Origin: a virus
Length of the DNA stretch: 37,676 nt
Strand: one strand, 5' to 3'
IMG/VR virus record: IMGVR_UViG_3300038701_003025
Location: 1 to 37,676 of that record
In this document: positions 1 through 37,676 of the stretch, piece after piece
Layout: the number at the start of each line of letters is the position of its first letter
Numbering within the stretch: the first letter of the stretch is position 1
Position numbers and translations under genes: made by a program
The notes under the pieces: model-generated
Databases searched by the model: none
What the model saw: only the letters and a program-made list of their open reading frames with translations
What the model was told of the DNA's origin: nothing

Positions 1-349
1 TAAATTCTTCATTAATATAGTGTAAAGCATACTCACTTTTCTTAACAGCTTCTAAACATATTTCAGGAGTTTGCTTTTCAACATACTTTAAAGCATGTCC
101 ATATTTTTTAACAGCTGCTAAGCATATCTTAGGAGTTTGTTCTTTAACATAACGTAAAGCATGTCCATTTCGCTTAACAGCCGCTAGACATATTTCAGGA
201 GTTTGCTTTTTAACATGTTGTAAAGCATTTCCAAATTCTTTAACAGCTTCTAGGCATATTTCGGGAGTTTGCTTTTCAACATGTTGTAAAGCATAGCCGT
301 TTTTTTTAACAGCTTCTAAACAATAGTCGTAATCATTCCATTTACTCAT
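1..349 (-). CDS. DUF4116-type 22-aa tandem-repeat protein, paralog 2, N-terminal part (ORF continues across the window junction into 37553..37623; about 139 aa in total)
   Basis: ATG at 349..347 overlaps the upstream stop (ATGAGTAA). Manual translation MSKWNDYDYCLEAVKKNGYALQHVEKQTPEICLEAVK... parallels ORF 751..1434. Absent from the track because it runs off the window edge. Confidence 0.75.
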   Translation of the reverse strand, partial: MSKWNDYDYCLEAVKKNGYALQHVEKQTPEICLEAVKEFGNALQHVKKQTPEICLAAVKRNGHALRYVKEQTPKICLAAVKKYGHALKYVEKQTPEICLEAVKKSEYALHYINEEF

Positions 350-750: not shown

Positions 751-1434
751 TTAGTTATCTTTAATATAGTTTAACATTTCTAAGTTATATTTGCAAGCTT
801 TAAGTAAAAACTTTTTAGTTTTAAATTCTTTTTTAACATACTTTAGAGCACCTTCCTCTTCTTTAACAGCCTTTAAGCATATTTCAGGGGTTTGCTCTTT
901 AACATATTCTAAAGCATTTCCATTTCGCTTAACAGCCGCTAAACAGATTTCAGGTGTTTGCTTTTTAACATATTGTAAAGCAAACCCATCTTGCTTAACA
1001 GCTTCTAAACATAATTCAGGGGTTTGATTTTCAACATATTGTAAAGCATAACCATTTCGTTTAACAGCCGCTAAGCGTATTTCAGGAGTTTGCTTTTTAA
1101 CGTATTGTAAAGCATACCCATTTTCCTTAACAGCCGCTAAACAGATTTCAGGAGTTTGCTTTTTAACATGCCTTAAAGCATAGCCGTTTTCTTTAACAGC
1201 TTCTAGGCATATTTCAGGAGTTTGCTTTTTAACATATTCTAAAGCATAACCATTTCGTTTAACAGCCGCTAAACAGATTTCAGGAGTTTGCTTTTTAACA
1301 TGCCTTAAAGCATAGCCGTTTTCTTTAACAGCTTCTAGGCATATTTCAGGAGTTTGCTTTATAACATATTCTAAAGCATGTCCACATTGCTTAACAGCTT
1401 CTAAACAATATTTATAATCATCCCACTTACTCAT
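751..1434 (-). CDS. DUF4116-type tandem-repeat protein, paralog 1 (227 aa)
   Basis: Consists of a 26-aa head (MSKWDDYKYC...), 8 units of 22 aa (QTPEICLxAVKxNGYALxYVKK) and a 25-aa tail. The unit matches my recollection of the Pfam DUF4116 repeat. Confidence 0.85.
   Translation of the reverse strand: MSKWDDYKYCLEAVKQCGHALEYVIKQTPEICLEAVKENGYALRHVKKQTPEICLAAVKRNGYALEYVKKQTPEICLEAVKENGYALRHVKKQTPEICLAAVKENGYALQYVKKQTPEIRLAAVKRNGYALQYVENQTPELCLEAVKQDGFALQYVKKQTPEICLAAVKRNGNALEYVKEQTPEICLKAVKEEEGALKYVKKEFKTKKFLLKACKYNLEMLNYIKDN
829..1356. repeat. 66-bp (22-codon) coding tandem repeat array, 8 units, with a 132-bp higher-order duplication
   Basis: 1127..1228 is identical to 1259..1360 (about 100 bp perfect; 121 bp with one mismatch). 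The remaining units are diverged copies. Confidence 0.9.
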
Positions 1435-2075: not shown

Positions 2076-2104
2076 GTTATCTCCTTAGTTGTTTTTAGTA
2101 TACA

Positions 2105-2287
2105 CTATTTATTATTTTTTGCAAGCGGTTTAGCTTTTTTATTTAATTTTTTATTTTTATTGTAATTGTGCCTTGCTGCATACTTAATGTAATAGCTCTC
2201 ACCTTCTTCTTTTCCCATACTATCTTTAAAATAGTTCATCAAGTGGATAGGTGCTTCTTCTTCGTTTACAATTTCGTTCCAGTCCAT
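2105..2287 (-). CDS. hypothetical protein (60 aa; acidic N-terminus, Lys-rich C-terminus)
   Basis: Track ORF 2105..2311 trimmed to the ATG at 2287 (MDWNE...), preceded by AAGGAGAAAAA. Confidence 0.55.
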   Translation of the reverse strand: MDWNEIVNEEEAPIHLMNYFKDSMGKEEGESYYIKYAARHNYNKNKKLNKKAKPLAKNNK

Positions 2288-2297
2288 TTTTTCTCCT

Positions 2298-2450
2298 TTA
2301 TTGGTTATCAATTGCGTTCATACGCTGTTCTAAGTGCTTTTTAATCCCTAAATGGGCGTCTGGTCCCTTGTCTACAAACGCTCCAAATAAAGCCATTGCA
2401 GCGCTAAATAGTAGGACAATTAGTAGTGAATCAAAGTTTTTCTTATGCAT
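2298..2450 (-). CDS. small membrane or secreted protein (50 aa), first gene of the leftward arm, below track threshold
   Basis: AAGGAG RBS, then ATG at 2450. Manual translation MHKKNFDSLLIVLLFSAAMALFGAFVDKGPDAHLGIKKHLEQRMNAIDNQ, with a basic N-terminus followed by a hydrophobic helix. Confidence 0.55.
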   Translation of the reverse strand: MHKKNFDSLLIVLLFSAAMALFGAFVDKGPDAHLGIKKHLEQRMNAIDNQ

Positions 2451-2480
2451 GGTAGCTCCTTAGTGTTAATCTCTGTATCC

Positions 2481-2508
2481 AGTTTAACAGATATCGGAAT
2501 TATTGCAA
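2481..2508 (-). promoter_or_regulatory. candidate sigma70-type early promoter for the leftward arm
   Basis: On the minus strand: TTGCAA (2508..2503), 16-nt spacer, TAAACT (2486..2481). It lies about 30 nt upstream of the first leftward RBS. Confidence 0.4.
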
Positions 2509-2599
2509 GCTTTATAACCAGGAAAATGTCTAATTGCGCTATTAAAATTTAAAATTCGCCTTATTCCCATTACTTAGAGATAGTATTAATATAGAACTA

Positions 2600-2608
2600 T
2601 GGTATATA
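2600..2608 (+). promoter_or_regulatory. candidate extended -10 element (TGgTATATA)
   Basis: Shares the 10-mer CTATGGTATA with the element at 2829..2838. No good -35. Confidence 0.3.
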
Positions 2609-2831
2609 TTAAACTCTAAACCGATCATTCAACCAGGTAATTGTCACCTTAACCTTAACTTATAGAGGCTTTTCTGGAGACCTCTAACCAGGAATGAGTC
2701 TGTAATATTATAGCGCGGGTTAAAATTAAAAAGCGGCTTAGCTTTTCAAGCTCTAAATTATTGAAATTACTATCATAATTAAACTTTTTTCCTGGTTTCT
2801 TAATTTTTTAATATTCCTGAATTTATATCTA

Positions 2832-2840
2832 TGGTATAAT
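2832..2840 (+). promoter_or_regulatory. candidate extended -10 promoter (TGgTATAAT) reading rightward into the C-rich tract
   Basis: Perfect TGnTATAAT with AT-rich upstream DNA. The predicted TSS is near 2847, about 770 nt before the first + strand gene. Confidence 0.4.
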
Positions 2841-3584
2841 ATTTAGTATATTCCAATACATACAGAATTATATATTGAATAGCATTCGTTAGAATGCACA
2901 GGTGAAAGGGTCTTACGACCCGTCACTTACTTGAAAGCACTGGCGAATACTAGAATATTCTATAATACTTACCCCCCGGAGAATGCGCTGGATTGTTCTT
3001 AATGTGCCAGAGGATTCTAATGGCACTCTCCAACGCTCTCCAGACCACTCTAAAACTCTCCAAAACACTCCAAACTCCTGGGGAATACTCTGCCCAGAAA
3101 GAACTCTCCTAAAGCTCTCTAAAACACGCCCCCCGGTAGAATGTAAGGGGGGTACGAAAAGAGAGAGGGGAGAGTGTTCTGGGGAGAGGGCATACTACCC
3201 TAAGCACTCTCTAAGTCCTCTAAGCACCCTAAACCCCCCTCCCCCATAATTCTAGCCCTAGAACACTTTCTAGCAGCCTCCCCCCCGGTAACTCTCCTAG
3301 CACCCCTTAGCACATAACCGCTTTTAAAATTTGCCCCTGCGCCATTTAAAATTAAAAAGCGCCACAAACCCTGCACCGCATCCAAAACCTGGCTCAGATC
3401 GAATATATGAGCGTTAGAGCCTTACCTGGACAGAAAGCACTGCTCTAGCACAAAAAACGCCTTGCCTAGCAACACGGTAGGCAAATTACCTTAAACCAAA
3501 ATAGGCGATATTAGAGACTGTCAAAAAATCAGACACTTTATTAACTCCGACTATTAATTGCTAGAAAAAAAGGCTTGACAGCGT

Positions 3585-3613
3585 TTGACCGCTGCTAATA
3601 TTTCTGCTAGTAT
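3585..3613 (+). promoter_or_regulatory. candidate late/rightward promoter giving a leaderless mRNA
   Basis: TTGACC (3585..3590), 17-nt spacer, TGcTAGTAT (-10 at 3608..3613), 6 nt, then ATG at 3620. No Shine-Dalgarno sequence. Confidence 0.5.
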
Positions 3614-3619
3614 GTACAA

Positions 3620-4198
3620 ATGTCTGAAAAATCAAAAAACGCATTAGATTTTGAAAAAGAAAAGCTCAGATTAGAATATCTATTTGAGTCAAATATAGAC
3701 CTGGCTGGGAGAATTATCCGAATTACCGGTCCAATAGGCGATCAGACCTATGAGGAATTCGACTCCCAGCTATCCGAACTAGAACGAATGAATACGAGAA
3801 AAACCATTTTCGTAAGGATTAACTCTCCCGGCGGCTCCGTTTATGATGCACTGGCTATAGTAGGTAGAATGAAAGCCTCCTCGTGCCCAATTGTGACTGA
3901 AGCCTATGGTCATGTAATGAGTGCCGCCACTTTAATCCTTGCTTCTGGAAAACGCCGTAAAATGAGCCGCTTTGCGATGTTCATGCACCACAAATCCCAA
4001 TACATGGTTGGAGGGTCGCACGACGAGGTCGTAGATGAAGTTAGGCAGCAAGAAAGGGAAGAAAAACTCTGGAGTGAATGGATGAGCGAATTTTCCAAGA
4101 AAAGCCCCCAATTCTGGAGTACGGCAGCCAAAAAGAAAAACTACTATGCAACAGCCCAGGAATGTTTAGACCTAGGCGTTATTGACGAGATAATATGA
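3620..4198 (+). CDS. ClpP-like (S14 family) serine peptidase, probable prohead protease
   Basis: Motifs INSPGGSV, GHVMSAATLILASG (Ser) and MFMHH (His). First gene of the structural arm. Confidence 0.7.
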   Translation: MSEKSKNALDFEKEKLRLEYLFESNIDLAGRIIRITGPIGDQTYEEFDSQLSELERMNTRKTIFVRINSPGGSVYDALAIVGRMKASSCPIVTEAYGHVMSAATLILASGKRRKMSRFAMFMHHKSQYMVGGSHDEVVDEVRQQEREEKLWSEWMSEFSKKSPQFWSTAAKKKNYYATAQECLDLGVIDEII

Positions 4199-4819: not shown

Positions 4820-6237
4820 CAGTAAATTACAAAGCCGTTCAAATTCTTGAGGAAATGCACCAAAACTGGAAGCCCCACGGCGGGCAGGTTGAGGCTCTTA
4901 AGCCCGTTATTGCAGACGGCTTTGATACCGCCTTTATTTCTTCTGGTCGTAAGTGGGGAAAGACTGAAACTGCCTTATATGCCTTATGGAGACATGCGCT
5001 TTTAAATCCTGGCTCAGCTTGTTACTATATTACGCCTGAAATGACCCACGGTAGGGAAATTATTTGGAATAACGGACGTTTAAAGCGTTTTGGACCCGAT
5101 AAATATGTGCTAAAGGTCTTAAATAATGAATCGCGGATGGTTTTTAAAAACGGCTCTTTCATTAAAATTGTTGGTTCGGAAAACTGGGGAGCAGCTAACG
5201 GACTTACTCCAGATTTCGTCGTATATGATGAATTTAAAGAGTTTCACCCTCAGTTCCATACTGAAATGAATCCTAACCGACTGGTACGGAAAGCGCCGCT
5301 TGTTATTATCGGGACGCCCCCGACTTCCATGAGCCGTAATATTGACCAGTATATGGACTATAAAGAAGAGTGCGAATCGGACGAAGATAAGGTATTTATC
5401 CGCCAACCCTCCTGGTCTAACCCGCACGTTGATCGAAAGTGGTTGGAAAAAGAAAAAGAGCGCCTTTTTAAATTAGGTGATGAAAATATTTGGTATAGGG
5501 AATATGAGGCTAAGATCGTACCTGGTGGACGTTCCGCAATCTTTCCAATGTTTAACCGCGAGCGTCATTTAATATCAGATAACGATTTACGGCGCTTTGT
5601 TAAGCGAGAAGGGCGCAAACTCGACTGGTATTGTGGAACAGACCCCGCTACAGTCTCAGTATTCGGCGGACTTATCGTAGGTATTCATCCGTTTACAAAA
5701 CATATATACGTTTTTTCTGAATTGTATGAAAAAGACCGGGCTAAAACCAGTATCCGCCTAATTTACCCTAAGCTAGAAAGCCTAATGTACAAATGGCAGC
5801 CCTATAGCTCTATCCATGACGACTGGTATAAGGTTTATGACGAGCACGAGGCATGGTTTTCTAACGAAGTTATGAGCCAGTATGGCGTTTATTTTTCCCC
5901 CAGTCATAAAAACCTAAATAAGAGGGATGATGGAATTAACTTGCTACGAGATATCTTTACCCACGACCTTATACACATAAGCGATGAATGTATTTCCCTG
6001 GTTACTGAAATTGAGGCGTATCATAGAGACGGCGAGAAAATAAAAAAGGGAAAAGATCACTTAATTGACACCTTACGCTATATCCTAGCTCACAATAGTT
6101 ATAATATGGTAGAAGCTTTAGAGCGTAAAGAAGTTCAAGAAAGACCCGACCGGGGAATGAGAAAACTTAAGGACGATTTAGATGAACTATACGAAAACAA
6201 TGTTGACTGGATGTCAAACTGGGAGCAAAAAATATGA
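4816..6237 (+). CDS. terminase large subunit
   Basis: Walker A SGRKWGKT and Walker B VVYDEF, plus C-terminal nuclease-type motifs (GTDPA, DHLIDTLRY). Confidence 0.85.
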   Translation: MTVNYKAVQILEEMHQNWKPHGGQVEALKPVIADGFDTAFISSGRKWGKTETALYALWRHALLNPGSACYYITPEMTHGREIIWNNGRLKRFGPDKYVLKVLNNESRMVFKNGSFIKIVGSENWGAANGLTPDFVVYDEFKEFHPQFHTEMNPNRLVRKAPLVIIGTPPTSMSRNIDQYMDYKEECESDEDKVFIRQPSWSNPHVDRKWLEKEKERLFKLGDENIWYREYEAKIVPGGRSAIFPMFNRERHLISDNDLRRFVKREGRKLDWYCGTDPATVSVFGGLIVGIHPFTKHIYVFSELYEKDRAKTSIRLIYPKLESLMYKWQPYSSIHDDWYKVYDEHEAWFSNEVMSQYGVYFSPSHKNLNKRDDGINLLRDIFTHDLIHISDECISLVTEIEAYHRDGEKIKKGKDHLIDTLRYILAHNSYNMVEALERKEVQERPDRGMRKLKDDLDELYENNVDWMSNWEQKI

Positions 6238-6482
6238 ATGACATTATAACCTATTCTCTTTTAGGCGTTTTTATTATTTTAAGCGTTATTAATCTTGTTT
6301 GCAGCCTTTTTTGCATGATTAAATTAATGGCGTTTGAAAAATCTACTCACCAAGTACAGTATGTGCCGATAGACCCCGAGTTTGAAAAAGAATCGGAGAA
6401 ACAATTAGAAGAAGTTAACAAGCGGTTTAAAGAATATGTAGAAGAAGACTTTTCAGATATATTACAGGAACAATCAATATAA
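6234..6482 (+). CDS. hypothetical protein with N-terminal TM helix (82 aa)
   Basis: ATGA coupling to TerL. Hydrophobic segment YSLLGVFIILSVINLVCSLFCMI followed by an acidic tail. Confidence 0.55.
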   Translation: MNDIITYSLLGVFIILSVINLVCSLFCMIKLMAFEKSTHQVQYVPIDPEFEKESEKQLEEVNKRFKEYVEEDFSDILQEQSI

Positions 6483-15595: not shown

Positions 15596-16021
15596 ATGGC
15601 TCAAAATTACATGGATTTAAGACAGGCTTTAGCAGAAAATTTAAGAAAGAAAAAAGGGCAAGAAGGAGCCCCGCCTCCACAGCCTACGCTGGATTTAAGC
15701 GACGGTCAAAAAATGGCAGCCGCTAACCAAGGGTTACAATTGCTTTCCCAAGCGCAAGGAGGAGAAGGAGCAAGCCCTATGTCAGGTGCCGCCTCCGGTG
15801 CAGCTACGGGATTTAGTTTAGGTGGACCTAAGGGCGCTTTAATCGGCGCTGGAGCAGGTGCTTTAGCAGGCGTTATGGGCGCAAGGGCAAATAGAAAAGC
15901 GCGGGAGCGCGAAGCAAAAGCCCAAATGTTAAGAAATATTGGAACAATTGAACAAAATAAAGGCATTAGCCAGTCTCAAGTTTTAGGACAATTAATGGCA
16001 GGATTAGGGAGTAGAAGATGA
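15596..16021 (+). CDS. Gly/Ala-rich glycine-zipper protein (141 aa)
   Basis: Segment GAASGAATGFSLGGPKGALIGAGAGALAGVMGA, with an AAGGTG RBS. Confidence 0.5.
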   Translation: MAQNYMDLRQALAENLRKKKGQEGAPPPQPTLDLSDGQKMAAANQGLQLLSQAQGGEGASPMSGAASGAATGFSLGGPKGALIGAGAGALAGVMGARANRKAREREAKAQMLRNIGTIEQNKGISQSQVLGQLMAGLGSRR

Positions 16022-19871: not shown

Positions 19872-20978
19872 ATGGCAAATAAACAACACTGGGGAAAAAA
19901 TTCTTTTGAATTACCTCCAAAAACCCATGAGCAGATACTCTTAGAGAGAGAACGAATTAACCGCATGCGTGAAATGGAGCGTATACAAGGGCAAAAAGAT
20001 GCTGACGCAGCTAAAGCCCAGGCTACTAGAGACCTTATTTCAGGTGACGCTACCGCAGGTATAGATTTCGCTAAATCTAAACTAGGTCTAGGCGAAGGCT
20101 CGCTAGGACGCGCTAGCACTGTTAGTCAAATTGACGAAACCAAGTTTAGGGAAATGGCGGACGGGATGGATGCTGGCTTTCTTCAGGCTAGTAGGGATAA
20201 GGCAAAAGAAGAGATTAACCGATCAACTCAACTTCAAAACCGCAGGCTTCAGGCGCTTCAATCCCAGCAAGGGATAAGGGGAGCTACGGCAGGTTCTCAG
20301 CAAATGTCAATTTTACAAGCAGGTGAAAAGCAAAAGGCAGACTTTGAGCGCGACCTGTTTTTAAAAGATAGAGAAGCCAGGATAGAGGGACTTCAAAACT
20401 TAGCCGAAGTACAAAAATATAACCAGCAACAAATGGTTGAACAAGAGCGTTTTAATTTGGCGCAAGCGGCGCAAGAAAAGTACGATCTCGCTCAATCTGG
20501 TCTAGCGTTTTCTCAATTAGGGCTGCAAGAGCGAGGGAGTGAGCGAGCTAAAGAAGCTCAACAGGCAGCCGCAGCCGCTTCTTCTGGGTGTTTTGCTGAA
20601 GATACTGAAGTGTATATGGCAGACGGTACTACCAAGCCGATCGCCGAATTAAAATTGGGTGACCGCGTTATGGGAGGGGATGTAGTATATAACTACTTTG
20701 TTGGTGTAAATAGTGGAGAAGCCTACCTTTATGATGGTATTTGCGTTACCGGAACCCACGCTGTAAATCATGAAGGCGAATTTAAGCGCATAGAAGATAT
20801 TGATGAGCTAGATACAACTACTAAGGTAGACGTGGTTTTTAGCGTATCTACTAAAAATCATAAACTTATTATAAAAGGCGATTCTGGAAATCGGGTTGAA
20901 TTTGCTGACTATGACGAATGTTACGATGTAGACCTATCTGGGGAAGACCGCCTTAAAATTTTAAATAAGGGCATTTAG
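19872..20978 (+). CDS. internal virion protein candidate with C-terminal Hint (Hedgehog/intein-like) domain
   Basis: The N-terminal ~235 aa are Q/E/A-rich and coiled-coil-like. This is followed by CFAEDTEVYMADGTTKPIAELKLGDRVMGG and VTGTHAV (a TxxH block). Confidence 0.6.
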   Translation: MANKQHWGKNSFELPPKTHEQILLERERINRMREMERIQGQKDADAAKAQATRDLISGDATAGIDFAKSKLGLGEGSLGRASTVSQIDETKFREMADGMDAGFLQASRDKAKEEINRSTQLQNRRLQALQSQQGIRGATAGSQQMSILQAGEKQKADFERDLFLKDREARIEGLQNLAEVQKYNQQQMVEQERFNLAQAAQEKYDLAQSGLAFSQLGLQERGSERAKEAQQAAAAASSGCFAEDTEVYMADGTTKPIAELKLGDRVMGGDVVYNYFVGVNSGEAYLYDGICVTGTHAVNHEGEFKRIEDIDELDTTTKVDVVFSVSTKNHKLIIKGDSGNRVEFADYDECYDVDLSGEDRLKILNKGI

Positions 20979-25565: not shown

Positions 25566-25772
25566 TTATTCTACAGAAAATCCCAAAAGTTTGCAAGCAT
25601 TTTCATAAGTTTCTGATACCGGGATAGATAATCCGCTAATATAGACTAAAGTAGTATATTCAACCGTACCCTGCTCATCAATAATGTGAGTACGATTCCT
25701 AACTACTTCTACTTTGTCTGGATTTACTACCAAATCATTCCCCTCAATGTCTTTAAATTTTACAGTGTTCAT
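25566..25772 (-). CDS. hypothetical protein (68 aa)
   Basis: GAGGAGG RBS and ATGA coupling to the GT9 stop. Last gene of the leftward arm. Confidence 0.55.
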   Translation of the reverse strand: MNTVKFKDIEGNDLVVNPDKVEVVRNRTHIIDEQGTVEYTTLVYISGLSIPVSETYENACKLLGFSVE

Positions 25773-26728
25773 ATTACCTCCTCAAGGTATGTTAAGAATT
25801 TATCGGCGGTCATTTCTTTAACGCACTGCCGATCTTTAAAAAAGCATTTATCAAATTCGTGTTGCCCATTATAAACCATGCACCAGTTTGTTTGGCAAAA
25901 GCGACAATCTACTTCAGGCGCTACAATTTTTATACTGGGGTCTAATTTACCAGAGCGGTATGGGATACGGGTCTTAGGGTCGACGCTAGTAAAGCCGGCT
26001 ATTATAGGCGTTTTAGTAAGCGCTGCCAAATGGAATAATCCTCCATCCATAGTTACCATTGCTTTAGCGCCCCATATAATTTGGAGAGCGGCTAGTATAT
26101 GGGTTTTATTAGTAAGGTCAATTACATGATCTCCAGTAAGCCCGTGCTCCCCGAAACCGGTAGTTTTTAAGCCGGTCTTAGCATTATAAACATTTCCCTT
26201 AGACCCTAATAAAACGAGTTTAAGACCACGGTTTTTAGCAAATTCGCTAATTTTGCCCATGGTAGGTACAGGCATTTCTCGCAAATTATTACGAAAAAAG
26301 GGCGATAAACAGATATAAGGCTCTTTAAGTTTAAAATCTTTTATGTTGGTATTGAAATTAAAATAAGGCATTTCTCTAGGTTCATCGTCCATAGGCATCA
26401 TATCAGTTAAAATATAATTAGCGTAGTCAGTTAAATGGGTGTGAATAGAACTATGCCTACTGATATTGAAAGCTAAGATACCGGTTCTTTTACCGTCTGC
26501 TCCACTAGGCGCTTTTGAAAACGGTCCTACGGATTTATCTGGATAAGCTTTTTGGAAAAAGGGGACCAGATAATCGGGGACCCATATCTTATATTTTTGG
26601 TATGGATAATTTTTAAAGATATTATTTAAAGCGGGGATGCAGTGTAAAATATCTCCTAAACCTCCTGAATTAAGCATTAGGTTTAATACCATTTGCTTTT
26701 CTTTTGGAACGGTAAACTTCCTAGACAT
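25769..26728 (-). CDS. glycosyltransferase family 9 (heptosyltransferase-like)
   Basis: Track ORF 25769..26923 trimmed to the ATG at 26728 (MSRKFTV..., GGAGC upstream). Motifs SGGLGDILHCIPAL and MDGGLFHLAALTKTPIIAGF. Confidence 0.7.
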   Translation of the reverse strand: MSRKFTVPKEKQMVLNLMLNSGGLGDILHCIPALNNIFKNYPYQKYKIWVPDYLVPFFQKAYPDKSVGPFSKAPSGADGKRTGILAFNISRHSSIHTHLTDYANYILTDMMPMDDEPREMPYFNFNTNIKDFKLKEPYICLSPFFRNNLREMPVPTMGKISEFAKNRGLKLVLLGSKGNVYNAKTGLKTTGFGEHGLTGDHVIDLTNKTHILAALQIIWGAKAMVTMDGGLFHLAALTKTPIIAGFTSVDPKTRIPYRSGKLDPSIKIVAPEVDCRFCQTNWCMVYNGQHEFDKCFFKDRQCVKEMTADKFLTYLEEVI

Positions 26729-26729
26729 T

Positions 26730-27239
26730 TTAAGCTCCTGTTTGGTTAAAAAAACGGTTATGCTCTCTTTTAGCCGCCCGATTATATAATTTAGCAGCGC
26801 CTTTTTCAGTGGTTGCTGAGCCAAGGTAAATGGTTTTACCGTTAATTCTAATGTTAGCTCCCCACTTATTTCCACTAGAAAGCTTATAAACCCCCTTGTA
26901 CTTAGAAGATGTTTTTCTAGCACTAGACTTATTATGCTGGTTTTGAGAGAGCGTTGCGCCCCTTAAATTTTTAACATTATTATTATAGGGGTTATTATCT
27001 ATATGATCGATGCACTCGTACTTATCCCAGTCTTTAATAAACGCGCTGGCTACTAACCGATGAACTTTATAGCATTTAGATACGCCGTTATGAGATATTT
27101 TAATCTCTGTTCTATGGCGCTTTACGTTTTTAAAGGTTTTTAAAATTCGGTCACTCTTAATGGAGTAAATTTCCCCTCGGTTTGATGCCATATATTTTCC
27201 GTCAAATCCAGGTATTTCTTTCCATAATTTAATTCGCAT
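26730..27239 (-). mobile_element. free-standing HNH homing endonuclease (NUMOD4-like + HNH + AP2 domains)
   Basis: Motifs WKEIPGFDGKYMASNRGEIYS, HRLVASAF...IDHIDNNPYNNNVKNLR...QNQHN and YKGVY...WGANIRINGKTIYLG...AAKLYN. Confidence 0.8.
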
Positions 27240-31917: not shown

Positions 31918-34053
31918 TTACTCCGTTGTAGTATATGTTATTATGCTACTATCTCCCTCACCATTGTGAAAGGCTATTATCTTTTTATCATTAATAAGCT
32001 CTCTAATAATTGTTTCCCTTTCCCTTGGTTTAAGCCAGCGGGTAGCGTCATTAAAATTCGGCTGAGAAATGCCTTCTCCCGATTTTTTAATCAGATTATA
32101 AACCTTTACATATTTTGCCTCCGTTTCATTAGAGAAAATATGGTTTTCTACAACGTCTTCCATAATCCCTCTAAAGTACATTACTACCTGGAAAGCAAAT
32201 TCCACGTCCTCTTTTTCTACAATAGGGACGTTTTTGTGAGTACGGCTACAAGCCGAGATCATGGCGATTTTTAAAGTTTGCTGATAAAGCCTTGAAATAA
32301 TGGGTAAGAGGTTACTGTCCTCGGGAGTATTTTGTCTTTCCTCGTCAAGTTTCCTAAATACTTGATCTAGTAACCGGCTTCCTGGCAAACTTGCTTGAAT
32401 ATCGTAAACTCTTTGAGAAACATCTCCTAATTTAAAGCCAGAATCTTGCGGCGCTTCAAAGTTTTTCCAGAAAAGAAGCGTTTCTTTAACCGAATCTGGT
32501 AATGTAGCCCTACGGGTAATTCTATTGGCGGGCTGCTTACTCTCGCCTTTAAAAATTAGAAAGCGCCCTAGGAGACCTTTTTCAATAGCTTTTCGGTTAA
32601 CGCTTTCGGAAAAACCCGTAGGGGTCGTTGCACATAGCAAACTAACGTTCGGTCTATCGCACATCCCTTTCCTACCTTCAGCGGTCATCCTACCTAGAAA
32701 CCGTGATGATGAACTGGTATATAGTTCGCATAAAATATCTGCCATTTTACCATTATAGGCTTGATTTCCTCCAGTAACTCCTTTTAGAAGTCCTGAAGCC
32801 TCATCTATAATATCTACCCTGCATGGGTTAGTGGCAAGTTCATCCATTAAAGAGGCGTCTGAAACGTAATCTCCAGCGCCAAGTAAATAAAAAGCGTTTA
32901 TTTCTGATAAAACATTTTTTACCTCTTGCATTGGCTGGTCTTTTCCTGAGCCTGAGCCGGCAATATTTAATAAATAAAGGTTGGAGGCTACCCCTTGGAA
33001 TCTAGTTTTGCGTCCAATAAGGGTAGCCATTATGGAGAGAGAGGCGCTAAGGGCAAATGCTGGTTGCTTAACGTATGAGTTTTGGAGGATATAATTTACT
33101 AATCCGCCCAAAGCGCCTGGAGGGTTAAGGAATAATTCTTTTTCCCTTATGTTTTTTTGGTCGTCCTTGTTTTGTTCTTTTTTTTTTAAAATTTCTTCTA
33201 TGTAAGTTTCGTTTACAGCTGAAGCAGTTACCGGGACCTCATATTCCTGGTGTTTTTGAAAACGCTTGGCGTTTACCGACCTTAAATGGTTACTATAAAA
33301 AGTAAGGGCATTGGTAAAAGGTTCGTTATGTCCCCATTGTTGAATGTCTTCAAAAAGTGGTGCTTCGTGGTTTTCCTTATCAAACTTAATTAATTCTGTT
33401 AAAGCGTCGCTTACTGATTTTCCTTCCTGAATTATTTTACCACAAATAGAGCTTAGCGCGTCATTTCTGCCGTTTATTAATTTTACAGAACCGTCCGCTA
33501 CTGTTCCTGGCATCAATACCTGCAGCTTGTTTTGAAGCTCGGGAATTAAGCCGATTGGTAAACGGGGTAAGGTGTCTTTGTCGATGTCTAATAACCCCTT
33601 GTCTTCCCATGTATATTGGATTCCAGAAGGGTGCATGGAAGGAGGAATAGTTACCTTTTTCTTATTACTAAGGATTTCTACTACCACTTCGCCGTTATAT
33701 TTTAAAGAAAAGGATTCTTCCCCACTGTATTTAAAAAATCGCACCCAACCCTTTTTACCGTTTCTTTGGACAGGGGATGAGGGCATCATGTGCTCGATTA
33801 AATCAATAATTTCTGGGTCGGTTGAGTCGAAATCTAGGGCAATTACACCACTTGCCGAACCAAGACAGATATCTATATTGCTTTTGTCGAAAGCGTTTGA
33901 CCATGTAAGATATTCGGTATCTGTTGGCAGTTCATTACAATATTTTGTCCATTCCTTAATAGCAGGTAGTTTTGATTCATATTTTGCAGGAGTGGCGCTA
34001 TATCCTTGTTTAATATAGTCCCTACCATGGTCTTTATAAGCGTTATTACTCAT
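31918..34053 (-). CDS. bifunctional primase-polymerase (Prim-Pol) / helicase-like NTPase
   Basis: N-terminal motifs IALDFDS, GWVRFF and IPPSMHPSGIQYTW. C-terminal Walker A GSGSGKD and Walker B DIIDEASG (DUF3987-like). Confidence 0.75.
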   Translation of the reverse strand: MSNNAYKDHGRDYIKQGYSATPAKYESKLPAIKEWTKYCNELPTDTEYLTWSNAFDKSNIDICLGSASGVIALDFDSTDPEIIDLIEHMMPSSPVQRNGKKGWVRFFKYSGEESFSLKYNGEVVVEILSNKKKVTIPPSMHPSGIQYTWEDKGLLDIDKDTLPRLPIGLIPELQNKLQVLMPGTVADGSVKLINGRNDALSSICGKIIQEGKSVSDALTELIKFDKENHEAPLFEDIQQWGHNEPFTNALTFYSNHLRSVNAKRFQKHQEYEVPVTASAVNETYIEEILKKKEQNKDDQKNIREKELFLNPPGALGGLVNYILQNSYVKQPAFALSASLSIMATLIGRKTRFQGVASNLYLLNIAGSGSGKDQPMQEVKNVLSEINAFYLLGAGDYVSDASLMDELATNPCRVDIIDEASGLLKGVTGGNQAYNGKMADILCELYTSSSSRFLGRMTAEGRKGMCDRPNVSLLCATTPTGFSESVNRKAIEKGLLGRFLIFKGESKQPANRITRRATLPDSVKETLLFWKNFEAPQDSGFKLGDVSQRVYDIQASLPGSRLLDQVFRKLDEERQNTPEDSNLLPIISRLYQQTLKIAMISACSRTHKNVPIVEKEDVEFAFQVVMYFRGIMEDVVENHIFSNETEAKYVKVYNLIKKSGEGISQPNFNDATRWLKPRERETIIRELINDKKIIAFHNGEGDSSIITYTTTE

Positions 34054-34453
34054 GAGAATATTCCCCTTTAATTGTAGCTAATTTTTCCTCTACACATTTA
34101 GTAATAAATTTTATATGTTTTATATTGGCGTTGTAATAATACTCTCGCATTGATATGTATTCTTTTGGTTTGTTTATTGCTAATTTATTGCTGGTCCTAA
34201 CCATTCTAAGTAAACTTTCTAAAGCGTCTTCCGAGCCGTCGAAAGATATAATTTCATCTTTAATTTTACTTTGTTTAATTATAATTTCGGGTTTAGTCGC
34301 GAAATCGTACGCCTTTTTTATAGCAAACCTAAGAAGTGAGAAAATGCCGCCCATTACAAAAGTTTTATATACTAATACCCCTATTAAAATATACATAGCT
34401 AGGTCAGGTAATTCTTTAATTAAACCCGATAACTCTCTTAAAAAATCAATCAT
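34046..34453 (-). CDS. membrane protein (135 aa)
   Basis: Track ORF (TTG at 34465) trimmed to the ATG at 34453 after GGAGGGG. TM segment LAMYILIGVLVYKTFVMGGIFSLL. Confidence 0.5.
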   Translation of the reverse strand: MIDFLRELSGLIKELPDLAMYILIGVLVYKTFVMGGIFSLLRFAIKKAYDFATKPEIIIKQSKIKDEIISFDGSEDALESLLRMVRTSNKLAINKPKEYISMREYYYNANIKHIKFITKCVEEKLATIKGEYSHE

Positions 34454-34959
34454 TTTCCCCTCCAAAAGTGCTTAGTAACCCGTTTTCTATAAATTCTTCT
34501 TAGTTTTGGATTACTTGAATTGTATCTAGTCCACCAATAGCGTTCTTTTTTTGCATAGCGGTTTTTAAAATCGGCTAAAACTTTTGCAGCGCACCCAATA
34601 CTGTAGCTGTAATTAGTTAAAAGAAGCTCTTTATTAGGACAAAAATGGGCTGCGGTGCGCTTATTAATTTGCCCTATGCCATAATCGTCCGAGCTTAAAT
34701 TTAAAGCGCCTAGGCTTAAACTTGACTCCTGGATTAGGATTGCGGTTAAAAGATGCGGGTCTAAATTATTTTCTAAACTATACTTATGCACATATTTAAC
34801 AATCAAGCTGGTTTTATACTCACAAAAATCTGGATTAAATTTTTTTATTTGTTTTTCAATAGGCTTAGCACCGATAGTTTTGATTAAAAAAATCATAACC
34901 GCTAATAAAATTATATTATTAAAATGCACTATAAAAAAACTATCTTTATTGAAGTTCAT
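34450..34959 (-). CDS. membrane-anchored SLT-domain lytic transglycosylase
   Basis: N-terminal TM segment IILLAVMIFLIKTIGA. SLT motifs LIQESS and YGIGQIN. Confidence 0.65.
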   Translation of the reverse strand: MNFNKDSFFIVHFNNIILLAVMIFLIKTIGAKPIEKQIKKFNPDFCEYKTSLIVKYVHKYSLENNLDPHLLTAILIQESSLSLGALNLSSDDYGIGQINKRTAAHFCPNKELLLTNYSYSIGCAAKVLADFKNRYAKKERYWWTRYNSSNPKLRRIYRKRVTKHFWRGK

Positions 34960-35167
34960 TTTTACCCCCGTTAACTAGTTCAAAAACATTATCCATTTCT
35001 AAAATATAGATATTTGCTTGTAAACCGTCGGCAATTTTTTTATCAGAAAACCCTACTTTTTGCATAAATTGTACAAAATCTTCTATAATTTCAGAAGCGG
35101 TTAACTCCTCTGATATTGTTTCGCAGGAAATGTTTTTTAACTGGTCAGTAAAATTAAACTTTTTCAT
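34946..35167 (-). CDS. hypothetical acidic protein (73 aa)
   Basis: GGAGAAAAAG RBS, coupled to its neighbours. Confidence 0.5.
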   Translation of the reverse strand: MKKFNFTDQLKNISCETISEELTASEIIEDFVQFMQKVGFSDKKIADGLQANIYILEMDNVFELVNGGKNELQ

Positions 35168-35739
35168 TACTTTTTCTCCATTAGGTATTTATTTACATAT
35201 TTATTAGCTATACCATTATTATACACATTTTTACCAGAAATTGTCAAGTACCTTTTTGATTTTAAGCTAGGTAACATTTCCCTATATTTAACTGGGTTTA
35301 GTTTAAAGATTTTAGCTTCCGCCTCTAATCTAAACAGGTCATATATCATACAAGTGGTTAAACAGTGCCCTGTTTTGGCGTTGCCGGCTTGATGTTGCTC
35401 CCACCTACTATTTATATAGGCTATTCTTTTGTCGCAATTAGCATATATTGAAGCAGCCCCAGAAGCCCCGAGAACTAAGTGACAAGTAAAGGTAAAGCCG
35501 TGCTTTTCTTTCATTATTTTCATGAAGGTAATGATATTATTAGTTACGTCAAGATATCCTCCTGGAGAATTGATAAGTAATACTATCTCTTTCCCCTTTA
35601 TATTGGCTTTATCTAGGTCTACGGCAAGCGTTTCTAGGGACCGGTCTAAAATAGGACCATATATCTGGGCATCTATTTTGAGTTTGCCTTGGGCGCACCC
35701 TGAAATCGCCATAATTAACATTAATAATACTATTTTCAT
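35167..35739 (-). CDS. ClpP/S14-like serine peptidase with lipoprotein signal peptide
   Basis: MKIVLLMLIMAISGC carries a lipobox (ISGC). Motifs LINSPGGY, LGASGAASIY and WEQHQ. AAGGAG RBS. Confidence 0.6.
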   Translation of the reverse strand: MKIVLLMLIMAISGCAQGKLKIDAQIYGPILDRSLETLAVDLDKANIKGKEIVLLINSPGGYLDVTNNIITFMKIMKEKHGFTFTCHLVLGASGAASIYANCDKRIAYINSRWEQHQAGNAKTGHCLTTCMIYDLFRLEAEAKIFKLNPVKYREMLPSLKSKRYLTISGKNVYNNGIANKYVNKYLMEKK

Positions 35740-35749
35740 ACTAACTCCT

Positions 35750-35778
35750 TTGCCCTCGATTCTATATCAGGGTAGTAT
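35750..35778 (+). promoter_or_regulatory. candidate promoter giving a leaderless RusA-like mRNA
   Basis: TTGCCC (35750..35755), 17-nt spacer, TAGTAT (35773..35778), 6 nt, then ATG at 35785. The geometry is the same as at 3585..3620. Confidence 0.45.
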
Positions 35779-35779
35779 T

Positions 35780-35808
35780 AGTCTATGATATATCGAATAA
35801 CTTTGCAA
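35780..35808 (-). promoter_or_regulatory. candidate promoter for the middle (replication/envelope) leftward operon
   Basis: On the minus strand: TTGCAA (35808..35803), 17-nt spacer, TAGACT (35785..35780). It sits back-to-back with the + strand promoter. Confidence 0.4.
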
Positions 35809-36225
35809 GACATTAAACCCTTTTCTATAAATAAAGCCCACTATCGCCGTGGTCAGCGTACCAAAGAGTGTCGTAGCTGGAGCTTTTTAGTCCATGAACA
35901 GATAGCTAAAGACCCGGCGTTTATTCAATTTAAGAAGCGGGCTAAAAAAGCCAGTTTTTTCCACGTCCATTTAAGGTTTAATATACCAGAAAAAAAGTTT
36001 TATACTAAGACTGGGAAAATTAGCCGGCTGACCAGCGATCTAACAAACGTGGAGAAAATGCTAGTCGATGTTATTTTTGACCCGCGTTTTCACGGTCGGG
36101 TTGAGAATGATCTTAAAATTGTTACTTTAGAGTGCGATGATACTTTGATTACTAAATTGGTAAGTGAAAAAGGAGCCACGAATAGCGACTCCTATAGTAT
36201 TGACGTTTCTATTCAGGTTTTTTAA
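35785..36225 (+). CDS. RusA-like Holliday junction resolvase (146 aa)
   Basis: ITLQDIKPFSINKAHY, DLTNVEKMLVDVIF and DDTLI parallel the RusA motifs ITLPWPPSNN, DLDNLQKAAFDAL and DD. It is the only + strand gene in the leftward arm. Confidence 0.5.
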   Translation: MIYRITLQDIKPFSINKAHYRRGQRTKECRSWSFLVHEQIAKDPAFIQFKKRAKKASFFHVHLRFNIPEKKFYTKTGKISRLTSDLTNVEKMLVDVIFDPRFHGRVENDLKIVTLECDDTLITKLVSEKGATNSDSYSIDVSIQVF

Positions 36226-36433
36226 GATTTTCTTCCTCAGTTTCTTCCTCGTCAAGCCATTCCATTGCCTCCTCCATTAATTGATGTCGCCTGTAATGGC
36301 TAAAATACTCGTGCGCTATTTTTAAGCCCACGGCTGCAGCAATGTATAAATTATATTGCGCCAATAGGTACACAATAGTAATTTCTACGAGTAAATTTAG
36401 CCCAATTTCAAGTGATACGTCAAACCGATTCAT
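36209..36433 (-). CDS. membrane protein with acidic C-terminus (74 aa)
   Basis: AGGAGA RBS and two hydrophobic helices. Its 3' end overlaps the RusA-like 3' end by 17 nt. Confidence 0.5.
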   Translation of the reverse strand: MNRFDVSLEIGLNLLVEITIVYLLAQYNLYIAAAVGLKIAHEYFSHYRRHQLMEEAMEWLDEEETEEENLKKPE

Positions 36434-36606
36434 TTTCTTTCTCCTGGTTTATAGATTTTTAAACAAGTTTCCGAAGCTTTTAGAGATTCTACCCCATGTT
36501 TCCCTACTAAAGTATAGACGCAGCCCCGCATTTTATCGCTAACTGGTAATTGACTTTCTAAAATTGAACAAGAAACTATAAAAGGTAAAAATAGTATATA
36601 TTTCAT
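36430..36606 (-). CDS. small lipoprotein candidate (58 aa), below track threshold
   Basis: AAGGAA RBS. Manual translation MKYILFLPFIVSCSILESQLPVSDKMRGCVYTLVGKHGVESLKASETCLKIYKPGERK. ATGA coupling to the next gene. Confidence 0.45.
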   Translation of the reverse strand: MKYILFLPFIVSCSILESQLPVSDKMRGCVYTLVGKHGVESLKASETCLKIYKPGERK

Positions 36607-36608
36607 TT

Positions 36609-36776
36609 TTAATTTCCTTTATTTAGTCTTTGTTCTTTATTATCTAGTATGGCACCGAATATTAAAGAAAGTGATATAATTAAAGAAGCATACGCATACA
36701 TTGGGTCACCTTCCGTAAAATGTTTATACACGCTATATGCTAAGTTTCCAATTAGTAAAAAATACACGTTACTCAT
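36609..36776 (-). CDS. small 2-TM membrane protein (55 aa), below track threshold
   Basis: AAGGAGAT RBS. Manual translation MSNVYFLLIGNLAYSVYKHFTEGDPMYAYASLIISLSLIFGAILDNKEQRLNKGN. Confidence 0.45.
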   Translation of the reverse strand: MSNVYFLLIGNLAYSVYKHFTEGDPMYAYASLIISLSLIFGAILDNKEQRLNKGN

Positions 36777-37069: not shown

Positions 37070-37321
37070 TCATAACCAGCCCTCTTTATAACCAAGCGCA
37101 TTTAAACGCTTAGTAAGGTAAGTTTTATCCCGGTCAAAAAGCGCCTTTACAGTTTCTTCTTCTAAGTTTTTATTTAAAGCCAGGTTAAGTAGGACTAGGC
37201 GGTTTTCAGAATTTTCTGCAATGCGCTTTTGAATTTCAGGGTCTTGAGTAAAGCGGGCAATTACCGCCTCCTCCTGGTAATAATTGCCCCCATATGATCT
37301 TAATGCATTTATTCTGTTCAT
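37070..37321 (-). CDS. hypothetical protein (83 aa)
   Basis: Track ORF with GGGGAAT upstream. Helical-repeat-like segment NRLVLLNLALNKNLEEETVKAL. Confidence 0.5.
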   Translation of the reverse strand: MNRINALRSYGGNYYQEEAVIARFTQDPEIQKRIAENSENRLVLLNLALNKNLEEETVKALFDRDKTYLTKRLNALGYKEGWL

Positions 37322-37552: not shown

Positions 37553-37676
37553 TTAGTTATCTTTAATATAGTTTAACATTTCTAAGTTATATTTGCAAGC
37601 TTTAAGTAAAAACTCTTTAGTTTTAAATTCTTCATTAATATAGTGTAAAGCATACTCACTTTTCTTAACAGCTTCT
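37553..37676 (-). CDS. C-terminal part of DUF4116-type repeat protein paralog 2 (continues from 1..349 across the junction)
   Basis: Stop at 37553..37555. The tail ...EEFKTKEFLLKACKYNLEMLNYIKDN is nearly identical to the tail of paralog 1. Confidence 0.75.
   Translation of the reverse strand, partial: EAVKKSEYALHYINEEFKTKEFLLKACKYNLEMLNYIKDN
37624..37676. repeat. 53-bp terminal overlap identical to nt 1..53 (circular assembly closure)
   Basis: Direct comparison of the window suffix and prefix. Confidence 0.9.

Follow-up and report, generated by a model that had tools for sequence, protein, structure and literature searches.

The stretch of viral DNA analysed here, called the window throughout, is the whole of IMG/VR record IMGVR_UViG_3300038701_003025 (37,676 bases), and the subject of this report is a block of eight genes at 34046-36776 that includes the gene for a ClpP-like protein with a lipobox (35167..35739, minus strand, 190 amino acids (aa)). 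The same 53-nt sequence occupies both ends of the window (1-53 and 37624-37676), and the window is as long as the whole of a JGI metagenome contig; it is therefore a phage genome assembled completely, as a circle, with 37,623 unique bases, and it belongs to an uncultured, podovirus-like tailed phage. Read along the minus strand, the block encodes a 55-aa membrane protein (36609..36776), a 58-aa candidate small lipoprotein (36430..36606), a 74-aa protein (36209..36433), the ClpP-like protein, a 73-aa acidic protein without a hydrophobic segment (34946..35167; between the ClpP-like and SLT genes, and translationally coupled), a 169-aa SLT lytic transglycosylase (34450..34959) and a 135-aa protein (34046..34453); a RusA-like gene (35785..36225) lies inside the block on the opposite, plus strand. 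The gene for the 135-aa protein overlaps the start of a Prim-Pol/DUF3987 primase-helicase-type replication gene directly downstream of the block (31918..34053, minus strand; Pfam Prim-Pol 2.2e-13, DUF3987 8.2e-17), and this overlap anchors the cassette in the replication operon. A GGAG/AGGAG-type ribosome-binding site stands before each open reading frame (ORF) of the block, that of the ClpP-like gene being AAGGAG. All six ORFs that the original prediction had picked out as envelope-targeted were recovered with the same ends, and the genes called by JGI on another contig of identical sequence agree fully for the block.

Hydrophobic segments were located by a Kyte-Doolittle (KD) scan of 54 candidate genes at a threshold of 1.6, which flagged five genes of the block; together with the ClpP-like lipobox protein, six of the eight genes have hydrophobic or lipobox N-termini. 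The claim of six membrane or exported proteins among nine consecutive genes therefore holds for the six, and the interval contains eight genes. Outside the block, the scan flagged the holin, a small protein between the large terminase (TerL) and portal genes, and one doubtful ORF with three transmembrane (TM) segments. The enrichment (6/8 in the block against 3-4/46 outside it; p 8e-5 to 2e-4 by Fisher's test and 0.003-0.007 by a scan statistic that takes in every 8-gene window) puts the clustering of exported and membrane genes beyond chance, with p values that are inflated because small early genes are hydrophobic more often in general.

The ClpP-like protein has a true ClpP fold. Pfam CLP_protease (PF00574) matched it with 27.9 bits (cutoff 20.2; 2.6e-6) over profile positions 42-118 only, and the NCBIfam ClpP equivalog models scored far under their cutoffs. 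Searching PDB sequences produced weak matches, all of them to ClpP save a few similarly scoring chains of the foot-and-mouth disease virus capsid protein VP2, and a family profile searched against the PDB had Listeria monocytogenes ClpP1 (LmClpP1) as its best match (5.5e-8). An AlphaFold (AF2) model was computed from the family alignment, reaching a predicted local distance difference test score (pLDDT) of 92.4 and a predicted template modelling score (pTM) of 0.86. The top 50 PDB matches of this model by Foldseek were ClpP throughout (E 1e-11 to 1e-10, TM-score ~0.67), with neither SppA nor NfeD among these top 50 matches listed, and its matches among viral models were ClpP-like proteins of phages and giant viruses. 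The check proposed in the original prediction, ClpP as opposed to an SppA/NfeD-type fold, thus came out as ClpP by Pfam, Foldseek, NCBIfam and the family profile. The handle helix (128-144) is present in the model. At the N-terminus, about 9 residues separate Cys15 from strand 1, DSSP assigned no helix to residues 13-23 of the model, and chain residues 1-13 of LmClpP1 are unpaired in the alignment; since the mature protein starts ~9 residues ahead of strand 1, it has neither the axial loops nor the helix A of ClpP.

For the active site, the protein was aligned by hhalign, profile against profile, to E. coli ClpP, placing S93 and H116 on the catalytic Ser and His, which we take to be Ser111 and His136 in precursor numbering. 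S93 and H116 are invariant in the family alignments, and the motifs around them (SxAAS and NSxxxQH) are invariant among members just 28-39% identical, a degree of conservation that argues for selection on catalysis. Four cysteines (C86, C102, C126 and C130) are also conserved in the family.

The ClpP-like protein's N-terminal stretch, MKIVLLMLIMAISGC (Cys15, Lys2), agrees in every point with a lipoprotein rule of the PROSITE PS51257 type that was coded by the author (Cys at 15-35, uncharged h-region, basic n-region), and by this pattern the predicted signal and lipobox were borne out. The lipobox pattern matched only the ClpP-like and 58-aa proteins of this genome, both in the block, and among the fetched relatives it also matched two distant ones, P0019 and P0042. 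All ten close relatives (10/10) open in the manner of a signal peptide, with a basic residue and then a hydrophobic run. Of the 50 nearest proteins, 40 are signal-peptide-like when judged simply by hydrophobicity, with several more just under the threshold (40-46), and the additional matches P0053-P0055 have N-termini of the same kind. Signal-like N-termini throughout the family indicate that export is a family trait and lipidation a local variation; the four conserved cysteines would fit an oxidising compartment.

A second ClpP-like gene (3620..4198, plus strand) lies just upstream of the terminase genes, has no signal peptide and is nearer to canonical ClpP (Pfam CLP_protease 7.8e-27; NCBIfam ClpP-related head maturation protease, 81 bits against a cutoff of 120), which shows that the exported copy is an additional paralogue. 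It also bears on the alternative that the protein of the block is a cytoplasmic ClpP-type prohead (head-maturation) protease with an incidental hydrophobic N-terminus. Weak PHROG head-maturation matches (~5e-4) and 17 bits to NCBIfam Clp_rel_HeadMat speak for that alternative, and head-maturation proteases (NF045542), which the product of 3620..4198 resembles, are likewise phage-encoded proteins of ClpP fold. However, 3620..4198 (81 bits) is the better candidate in this phage, hydrophobic N-termini with basic n-regions are conserved across the exported family, the lipobox and conserved cysteines of this protein point to export, and a protein with an export signal could not act inside proheads, so that we consider a prohead protease hardly credible. 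As a candidate for that role the gene at 35167..35739 was rejected, with 17.3 bits to NF045542 against a cutoff of 120 and a position in the replication operon, outside the head module.

Relatives were collected by an exhaustive HMMER search of 1.84 billion representative proteins, which for the ClpP-like protein returned 50 matches at E<=1e-3 and 11 at E<=1e-10; ten close relatives are 28-39% identical to it. With a word-indexed search, the protein itself plus one distant match were found, and the close relatives are represented by 1-2 sequences each; together with the small number of HMMER matches, this marks the family as rare. A related-locus search with the ClpP-like alignments returned nothing from IMG/VR or JGI metagenomes, GTDB genomes gave just distant ClpP-domain matches (in Planctomycetota and Clostridia), and tblastn of the protein against cultured phages gave no match. 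One metagenomic protein of 4,851 aa (P0010) contains ten separate stretches matching residues ~25-72 of the ClpP-like protein, and could be a repeat protein of giant size or an artefact of the assembly.

All relatives with identifiable neighbours sit in the replication module of related uncultured phages, and at loci L008, L010, L011, L060 and L061 the ClpP-like gene lies each time in a module of DNA polymerase, prim-pol and PDDEXK genes. Locus L010 has the gene order of the window, namely a RusA-like gene on the opposite strand, the ClpP-like gene, a small gene, an SLT gene with a signal peptide, and prim-pol; its small gene (60 aa) occupies the position of 34946..35167, with no detectable similarity. 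In L011 the ClpP-like gene immediately precedes prim-pol and a Cys-rich motif protein is encoded upstream, and in L061 the ClpP-like gene is followed by a 134-aa Cys-rich protein with a lipoprotein-like signal and then by prim-pol. The Cys-rich protein of these two loci (L061 768-1172, L011 1-201) is acidic, has the motif SEDCFLDYR..Y..V.IGFS and received no family assignment. The L008 gene lies between an upstream homologue of the window's 83-aa gene (37070..37321) and small genes toward the DNA polymerase, and the L060 gene lies directly before the DNA polymerase and is followed by a second, signal-less ClpP-like gene. Pairing of a signal-less with an exported ClpP-like gene is seen in the window, in L060 and in L058, where the signal-less copy accompanies a candidate lipobox-bearing copy (P0042). 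These loci show the exported ClpP-like gene recurring in the replication-module neighbourhood of this phage group, often next to genes for other exported proteins.

The second enzyme of the block, encoded at 34450..34959, was assigned by Pfam SLT (PF01464; 40.1 bits, cutoff 21.3, 3.1e-10). Its catalytic Glu lies in ILIQES, which is kept, as is GIGQIN, in the homologue from L010, and it has two conserved cysteines. The N-terminal segment (residues 8-26, KD 2.47) could be a signal anchor or a cleavable signal peptide, with a possible cleavage site between ..TIGA and KP and, in the 50%-identical L010 homologue, between ..VRA and Q; the SLT domain and hydrophobic N-terminus of the predicted TM-anchored transglycosylase therefore stand, and its anchor may be a cleaved signal peptide. 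The IagB profile matched weakly (18.8 bits, cutoff 208, 9e-4), and the window contains no secretion-system genes. A single-sequence AF2 model was poor (pLDDT 50), and the word-indexed protein search returned the self-match alone. With the specialised small lytic transglycosylases IagB, IpgF, VirB1 and P19 and with Kayvirus Tgl, the SLT protein of the block can be compared for its size (~170 aa), its predicted Sec targeting, its E-S motif and a gene position away from holin and endolysin; Tgl is the protein of a Gram-positive myovirus and lies near its own lysis module.

A small exported transglycosylase beside a predicted lipoprotein protease could also serve lysis, the SLT protein being a secreted auxiliary endolysin, inactive until the holin fires, and the protease cutting the tethers between outer membrane (OM) and murein or weakening the OM as a substitute for spanins. 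Kayvirus Tgl offers a precedent, as a Sec-secreted, early-transcribed phage lytic transglycosylase that is an additional endolysin and needs membrane depolarisation (PMC7150955). No spanin-like gene adjoins the M15 endolysin and 3-TM holin of the window, and both lipobox-pattern proteins of the genome are in the block, which also favour a part in lysis. Yet the genes lie inside the replication operon, with the lysis genes ~9 kb away on the other strand, relatives without SLT still keep the ClpP-like gene, the SLT N-terminus is strongly hydrophobic (KD 2.47), unlike a signal-arrest-release (SAR) sequence, and the 58-aa and 74-aa proteins fall short of the length of a canonical spanin pair and come in the wrong order. 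We consider a lysis accessory a serious but unlikely alternative, and the original prediction was right in setting the block apart from the lysis genes, since its minus-strand genes share the direction of the replication genes, overlap with them and lie a long way from the M15 endolysin and holin. The 58-aa and 74-aa proteins were also examined as a spanin pair in their own right and rejected (order reversed, periplasmic part of the TM protein ~35 aa, ~11 kb from holin and endolysin).

Compared with ClpP (MEROPS S14, PF00574), the family member in the window is alike in fold, in the positions of Ser and His, in INSPGG and NSR..QH-type motifs and in the handle helix. It differs in that a Sec/lipoprotein signal stands where ClpP has its axial loops and helix A, in a catalytic Asp that is not conserved, in four conserved Cys that include a CxxxC just after the His, and in being encoded only in phage replication modules; no AAA+ partner would be possible in the periplasm. 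ClpP-family proteases had been described in the original prediction as normally cytoplasmic, which is true for S14, but the fold clan includes the periplasm-facing SppA and SohB. These have a ClpP-like fold, work on the periplasmic side of the membrane without ATP, and provide the best functional analogy for an extracytoplasmic, self-compartmentalising peptidase, although S49 enzymes use a Ser-Lys dyad and are larger and TM-anchored, and our protein has no Peptidase_S49 Pfam match, scores 17.3 bits with NCBIfam SppA_dom (cutoff 155) and has a His at the S14 position. NfeD/STOPP proteins (e.g. Pyrococcus 1510-N), which also use a Ser-Lys dyad, are alike in having a ClpP-class domain preceded by a hydrophobic N-terminus; they differ in that the ClpP-like protein has no NfeD Pfam match and, at 190 aa with no extension, no C-terminal TM or oligonucleotide/oligosaccharide-binding (OB) NfeD domain, and the window has no stomatin-like gene. 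T5 Llp, T4 Imm and Sp, and P22 SieA serve superinfection exclusion as early exported, lipidated or membrane proteins of lytic phages acting on the envelope, but none is a protease or of ClpP fold, and neither sequence similarity nor a PADLOC or PHROG link connects them with the block; PADLOC gave no link to a defence system.

Taken together, the block would be the upstream end of a replication (early/middle) operon with a variable cassette of exported and membrane proteins, its co-oriented overlapping genes running into prim-pol. The constant member of this cassette would be a lineage-specific ClpP-fold serine peptidase, carried across the inner membrane by the Sec pathway and, in this phage, lipid-anchored at Cys15. 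It has kept the nucleophile Ser and general-base His of ClpP, has lost the N-terminal axial-loop/helix-A region used for gating and for docking of the AAA+ unfoldase, and has gained four conserved cysteines, a combination that most likely means ATP-independent action in the periplasm. Its substrates would be peptides, or unfolded or exposed segments of envelope proteins, and it would be co-expressed with a small exported transglycosylase able to open the murein locally, plus several small membrane proteins. As its purpose we favour modification of the infected-cell envelope, by which superinfecting phages would be excluded or receptors destroyed, because exported early proteins of lytic phages typically modify the host envelope. 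We infer the catalytic activity, early timing and biological purpose of the ClpP-like protein, and give this overall explanation (an exported ATP-independent ClpP-fold peptidase, with early envelope modification as the preferred purpose) a probability of about 0.5. A more specific version would make the protein a periplasmic, ClpP-derived early weapon that is lipid-tethered and either degrades unfolded proteins on their way through the periplasm, for instance those ejected by a superinfecting phage, or cuts a receptor or an envelope tether, with the transglycosylase providing access through the murein; we rate it as decidedly unlikely, and if true, it would amount to a new class of extracytoplasmic S14-type protease and to proteolytic superinfection exclusion.

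Several observations weigh against an exported, active, early peptidase, the first of which concerns the third triad residue. By manual alignment (KRYLT against DRFLS; hhalign left the C-terminus unaligned), the ClpP Asp position is Lys162, and this column varies in the family alignment. With the Asp column not conserved, the catalytic apparatus may be a dyad or impaired; Ser and His of the catalytic arrangement sought in the original prediction are in place, and a full triad is apparently lacking. The ClpP-like protein could then be a non-catalytic periplasmic or OM lipoprotein, a pseudo-protease scaffold that masks a receptor or envelope component in the manner of T5 Llp or Cor-type proteins. 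Loss of the N-terminal region would suit such a scaffold as well, and phage early lipoproteins commonly act through receptor binding. We nevertheless find it improbable, given that Ser93, His116 and the SxAAS and NSxxxQH motifs are invariant at 28-39% identity, and that ClpP variants without the Asp exist among solved structures: PDB 4jcr, a Foldseek match of the model, is titled 'ClpP1 N165D mutant from Listeria monocytogenes', the wild-type ClpP1 presumably having Asn at position 165.

The exported peptidase is further weakened as a lipoprotein, since its close relatives carry ordinary signal peptides and the lipobox is not conserved, and its actual export and lipidation are predictions from sequence patterns. 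Gene order is the sole basis for the proposed early timing, and premature damage to the host might be expected from an early, active murein hydrolase combined with a protease. Inside the RusA-like gene, a terminator-like hairpin on the minus strand (36193-36171) may divide the block between two transcripts. A functional link between the six genes is conjectural, because an SLT gene accompanies the ClpP-like gene in 2 of ~8 loci and the small membrane proteins have no homologues; on the same grounds, the periplasm-remodelling or superinfection-exclusion system that had been proposed is a conjecture. The earlier observation is confirmed, and its interpretation is partly supported.

The same evidence bears on the alternative that there is no system at all, and that six unrelated accessory genes have gathered at a permissive site between the RusA-like and prim-pol genes, their membrane bias being that of the usual small hydrophobic early genes. 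Five of the six genes lack homologues beyond this phage or, at most, one relative, and the content of the position varies (SLT in L010, the Cys-rich protein in L061 and L011, a 2-3-TM protein in marine relatives). Against a chance assembly, the clustering is statistically unusual, the occupants of the position in relatives are again exported or membrane-bound, and the ClpP-like gene itself is conserved. We judge the absence of a system to be a rather unlikely alternative; it concerns the grouping only and is compatible with an exported ClpP-fold peptidase as the molecular reading of the ClpP-like protein.

The remaining proteins of the block are small. The 135-aa protein has one borderline TM segment (residues 15-33; KD 1.61 against the threshold of 1.6), so the predicted TM protein is marginal at this position; it has no family match in Pfam, PHROG or NCBIfam and is absent from related loci. 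The 74-aa protein was confirmed as a TM protein by its N-terminal hydrophobic segment (KD), has a highly acidic C-terminal tail, and is without homologues in Pfam, PHROG or the related loci. The 58-aa candidate lipoprotein (MKYILFLPFIVSC) has a KD segment and two more Cys in its mature part; the lipobox pattern assigned to it is matched, but its Cys is at position 13 (rule range 15-35) behind an unusually short signal, which makes its lipidation less secure. The 55-aa protein, predicted to have two TM segments, has one clear segment (26-44) and a weaker N-terminal hydrophobic stretch by KD. These four small hydrophobic proteins (135, 74, 58 and 55 aa) received no family, PHROG, NCBIfam or PADLOC assignment, and homologues of the small membrane proteins of the window were undetectable even in the closest relatives. 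The RusA-like gene (Pfam RusA 0.018, weak) has homologues in 28 related loci, making it the best-conserved gene of the neighbourhood, and does not encode an envelope protein.

The late block of the genome lies on the plus strand and encodes small and large terminase, a P22/SU10-type portal, an SU10-type capsid and adaptor, an M15 peptidase and a 3-TM holin. The minus strand, from ~37.5 kb down to 25.6 kb, carries small genes and then the replication module (Prim-Pol/DUF3987, a PDDEXK nuclease, a dATP/dGTP diphosphohydrolase domain, a family-A DNA polymerase and a GT9 heptosyltransferase-like gene). The GT9 glycosyltransferase (25769-26923, minus strand) may modify host lipopolysaccharide (LPS), and this heptosyltransferase-like gene and the Shine-Dalgarno (SD) sites suggest as host an LPS-bearing diderm with SD-dependent initiation. 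The DNA of the window has no match among cultured phages, and by tblastn against these the DNA polymerase and TerL reach just 24-27% identity. There are no tRNA genes in the window, Rfam gave no match to it, and a promoter scan gave a signal no higher than the shuffled expectation.

Marine relatives were found in 40 metagenomic and 4 IMG/VR loci, with prim-pol 38-52% identical (mostly 44-49%; 47% in the IMG/VR relative L056), and they also share replication, terminase, portal and holin genes with the window. At the position corresponding to the block, they contain no member of the window's ClpP-like family (P0001), no SLT and none of the small membrane proteins, and have a 2-3-TM protein instead. 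Their own ClpP-like gene is another one, which lies between the two terminase genes, small and large (L026 2421-3176, L043 3185-3925, L052 2851-3579, L056 2253-2966, L024 4290-5036 and L054 3538-4263), an odd place for an exported protease; its product of 237-251 aa has a signal peptide and numerous cysteines. Profile scores for these marine signal-peptide ClpP-like proteins (28-35 bits) and for canonical ClpP (26-46 bits) are not separated in range, and would fit either a common exported lineage or a signal peptide that was gained independently.

Other features of the genome were recorded. The 82-aa protein at 6234-6482 (plus strand), between the large terminase and portal genes, has a strong TM segment and is found at the same position in marine relatives at 33-40% identity. 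About 1.5 kb at 2076-3619 has no convincing long ORF, with a higher G+C content (0.45) at 3001-4000, and contains a 23-nt motif (GCGCnnnTTAAAATTAAAAAGCG-like) three times, plus other short repeats, with no Rfam match; it could be an origin or a regulatory region. The gene at 751-1434 (minus strand) encodes a protein made of five DUF4116 repeats (Pfam 3.2e-55), and a 12-nt string from the contig end has several DNA-level copies in or near it. In the late region, the C-terminal part of the product of 19872-20978 (plus strand) contains a Hint (intein/hedgehog-type) domain (Pfam 1.2e-9), and 15596-16021 (plus strand) encodes a 141-aa protein with a glycine-zipper (Gly-zipper_Omp) motif.

ClpP is the textbook ATP-dependent, cytoplasmic chamber protease. 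A literature search on periplasmic, secreted or lipoprotein ClpP in phages and bacteria, in a library that was incomplete, found nothing relevant, and such an exported branch of the ClpP fold, carried by phages, seems to be rare and not yet described. The family, so far found only in phages, keeps the Ser and His of ClpP and has its unfoldase-docking N-terminus swapped for an export or lipoprotein signal, and would place S14-type chemistry in the ATP-free periplasm. As about 40 of the 50 nearest metagenomic relatives look exported, a larger unstudied clade is suggested, which is currently annotated plainly as 'ATP-dependent Clp protease proteolytic subunit'. If these proteins are active, it may be asked how a ClpP-fold enzyme would choose its substrates without an unfoldase, and what a lytic phage would gain from early proteolysis of the envelope, be it exclusion of competitors, destruction of receptors or preparation for lysis.

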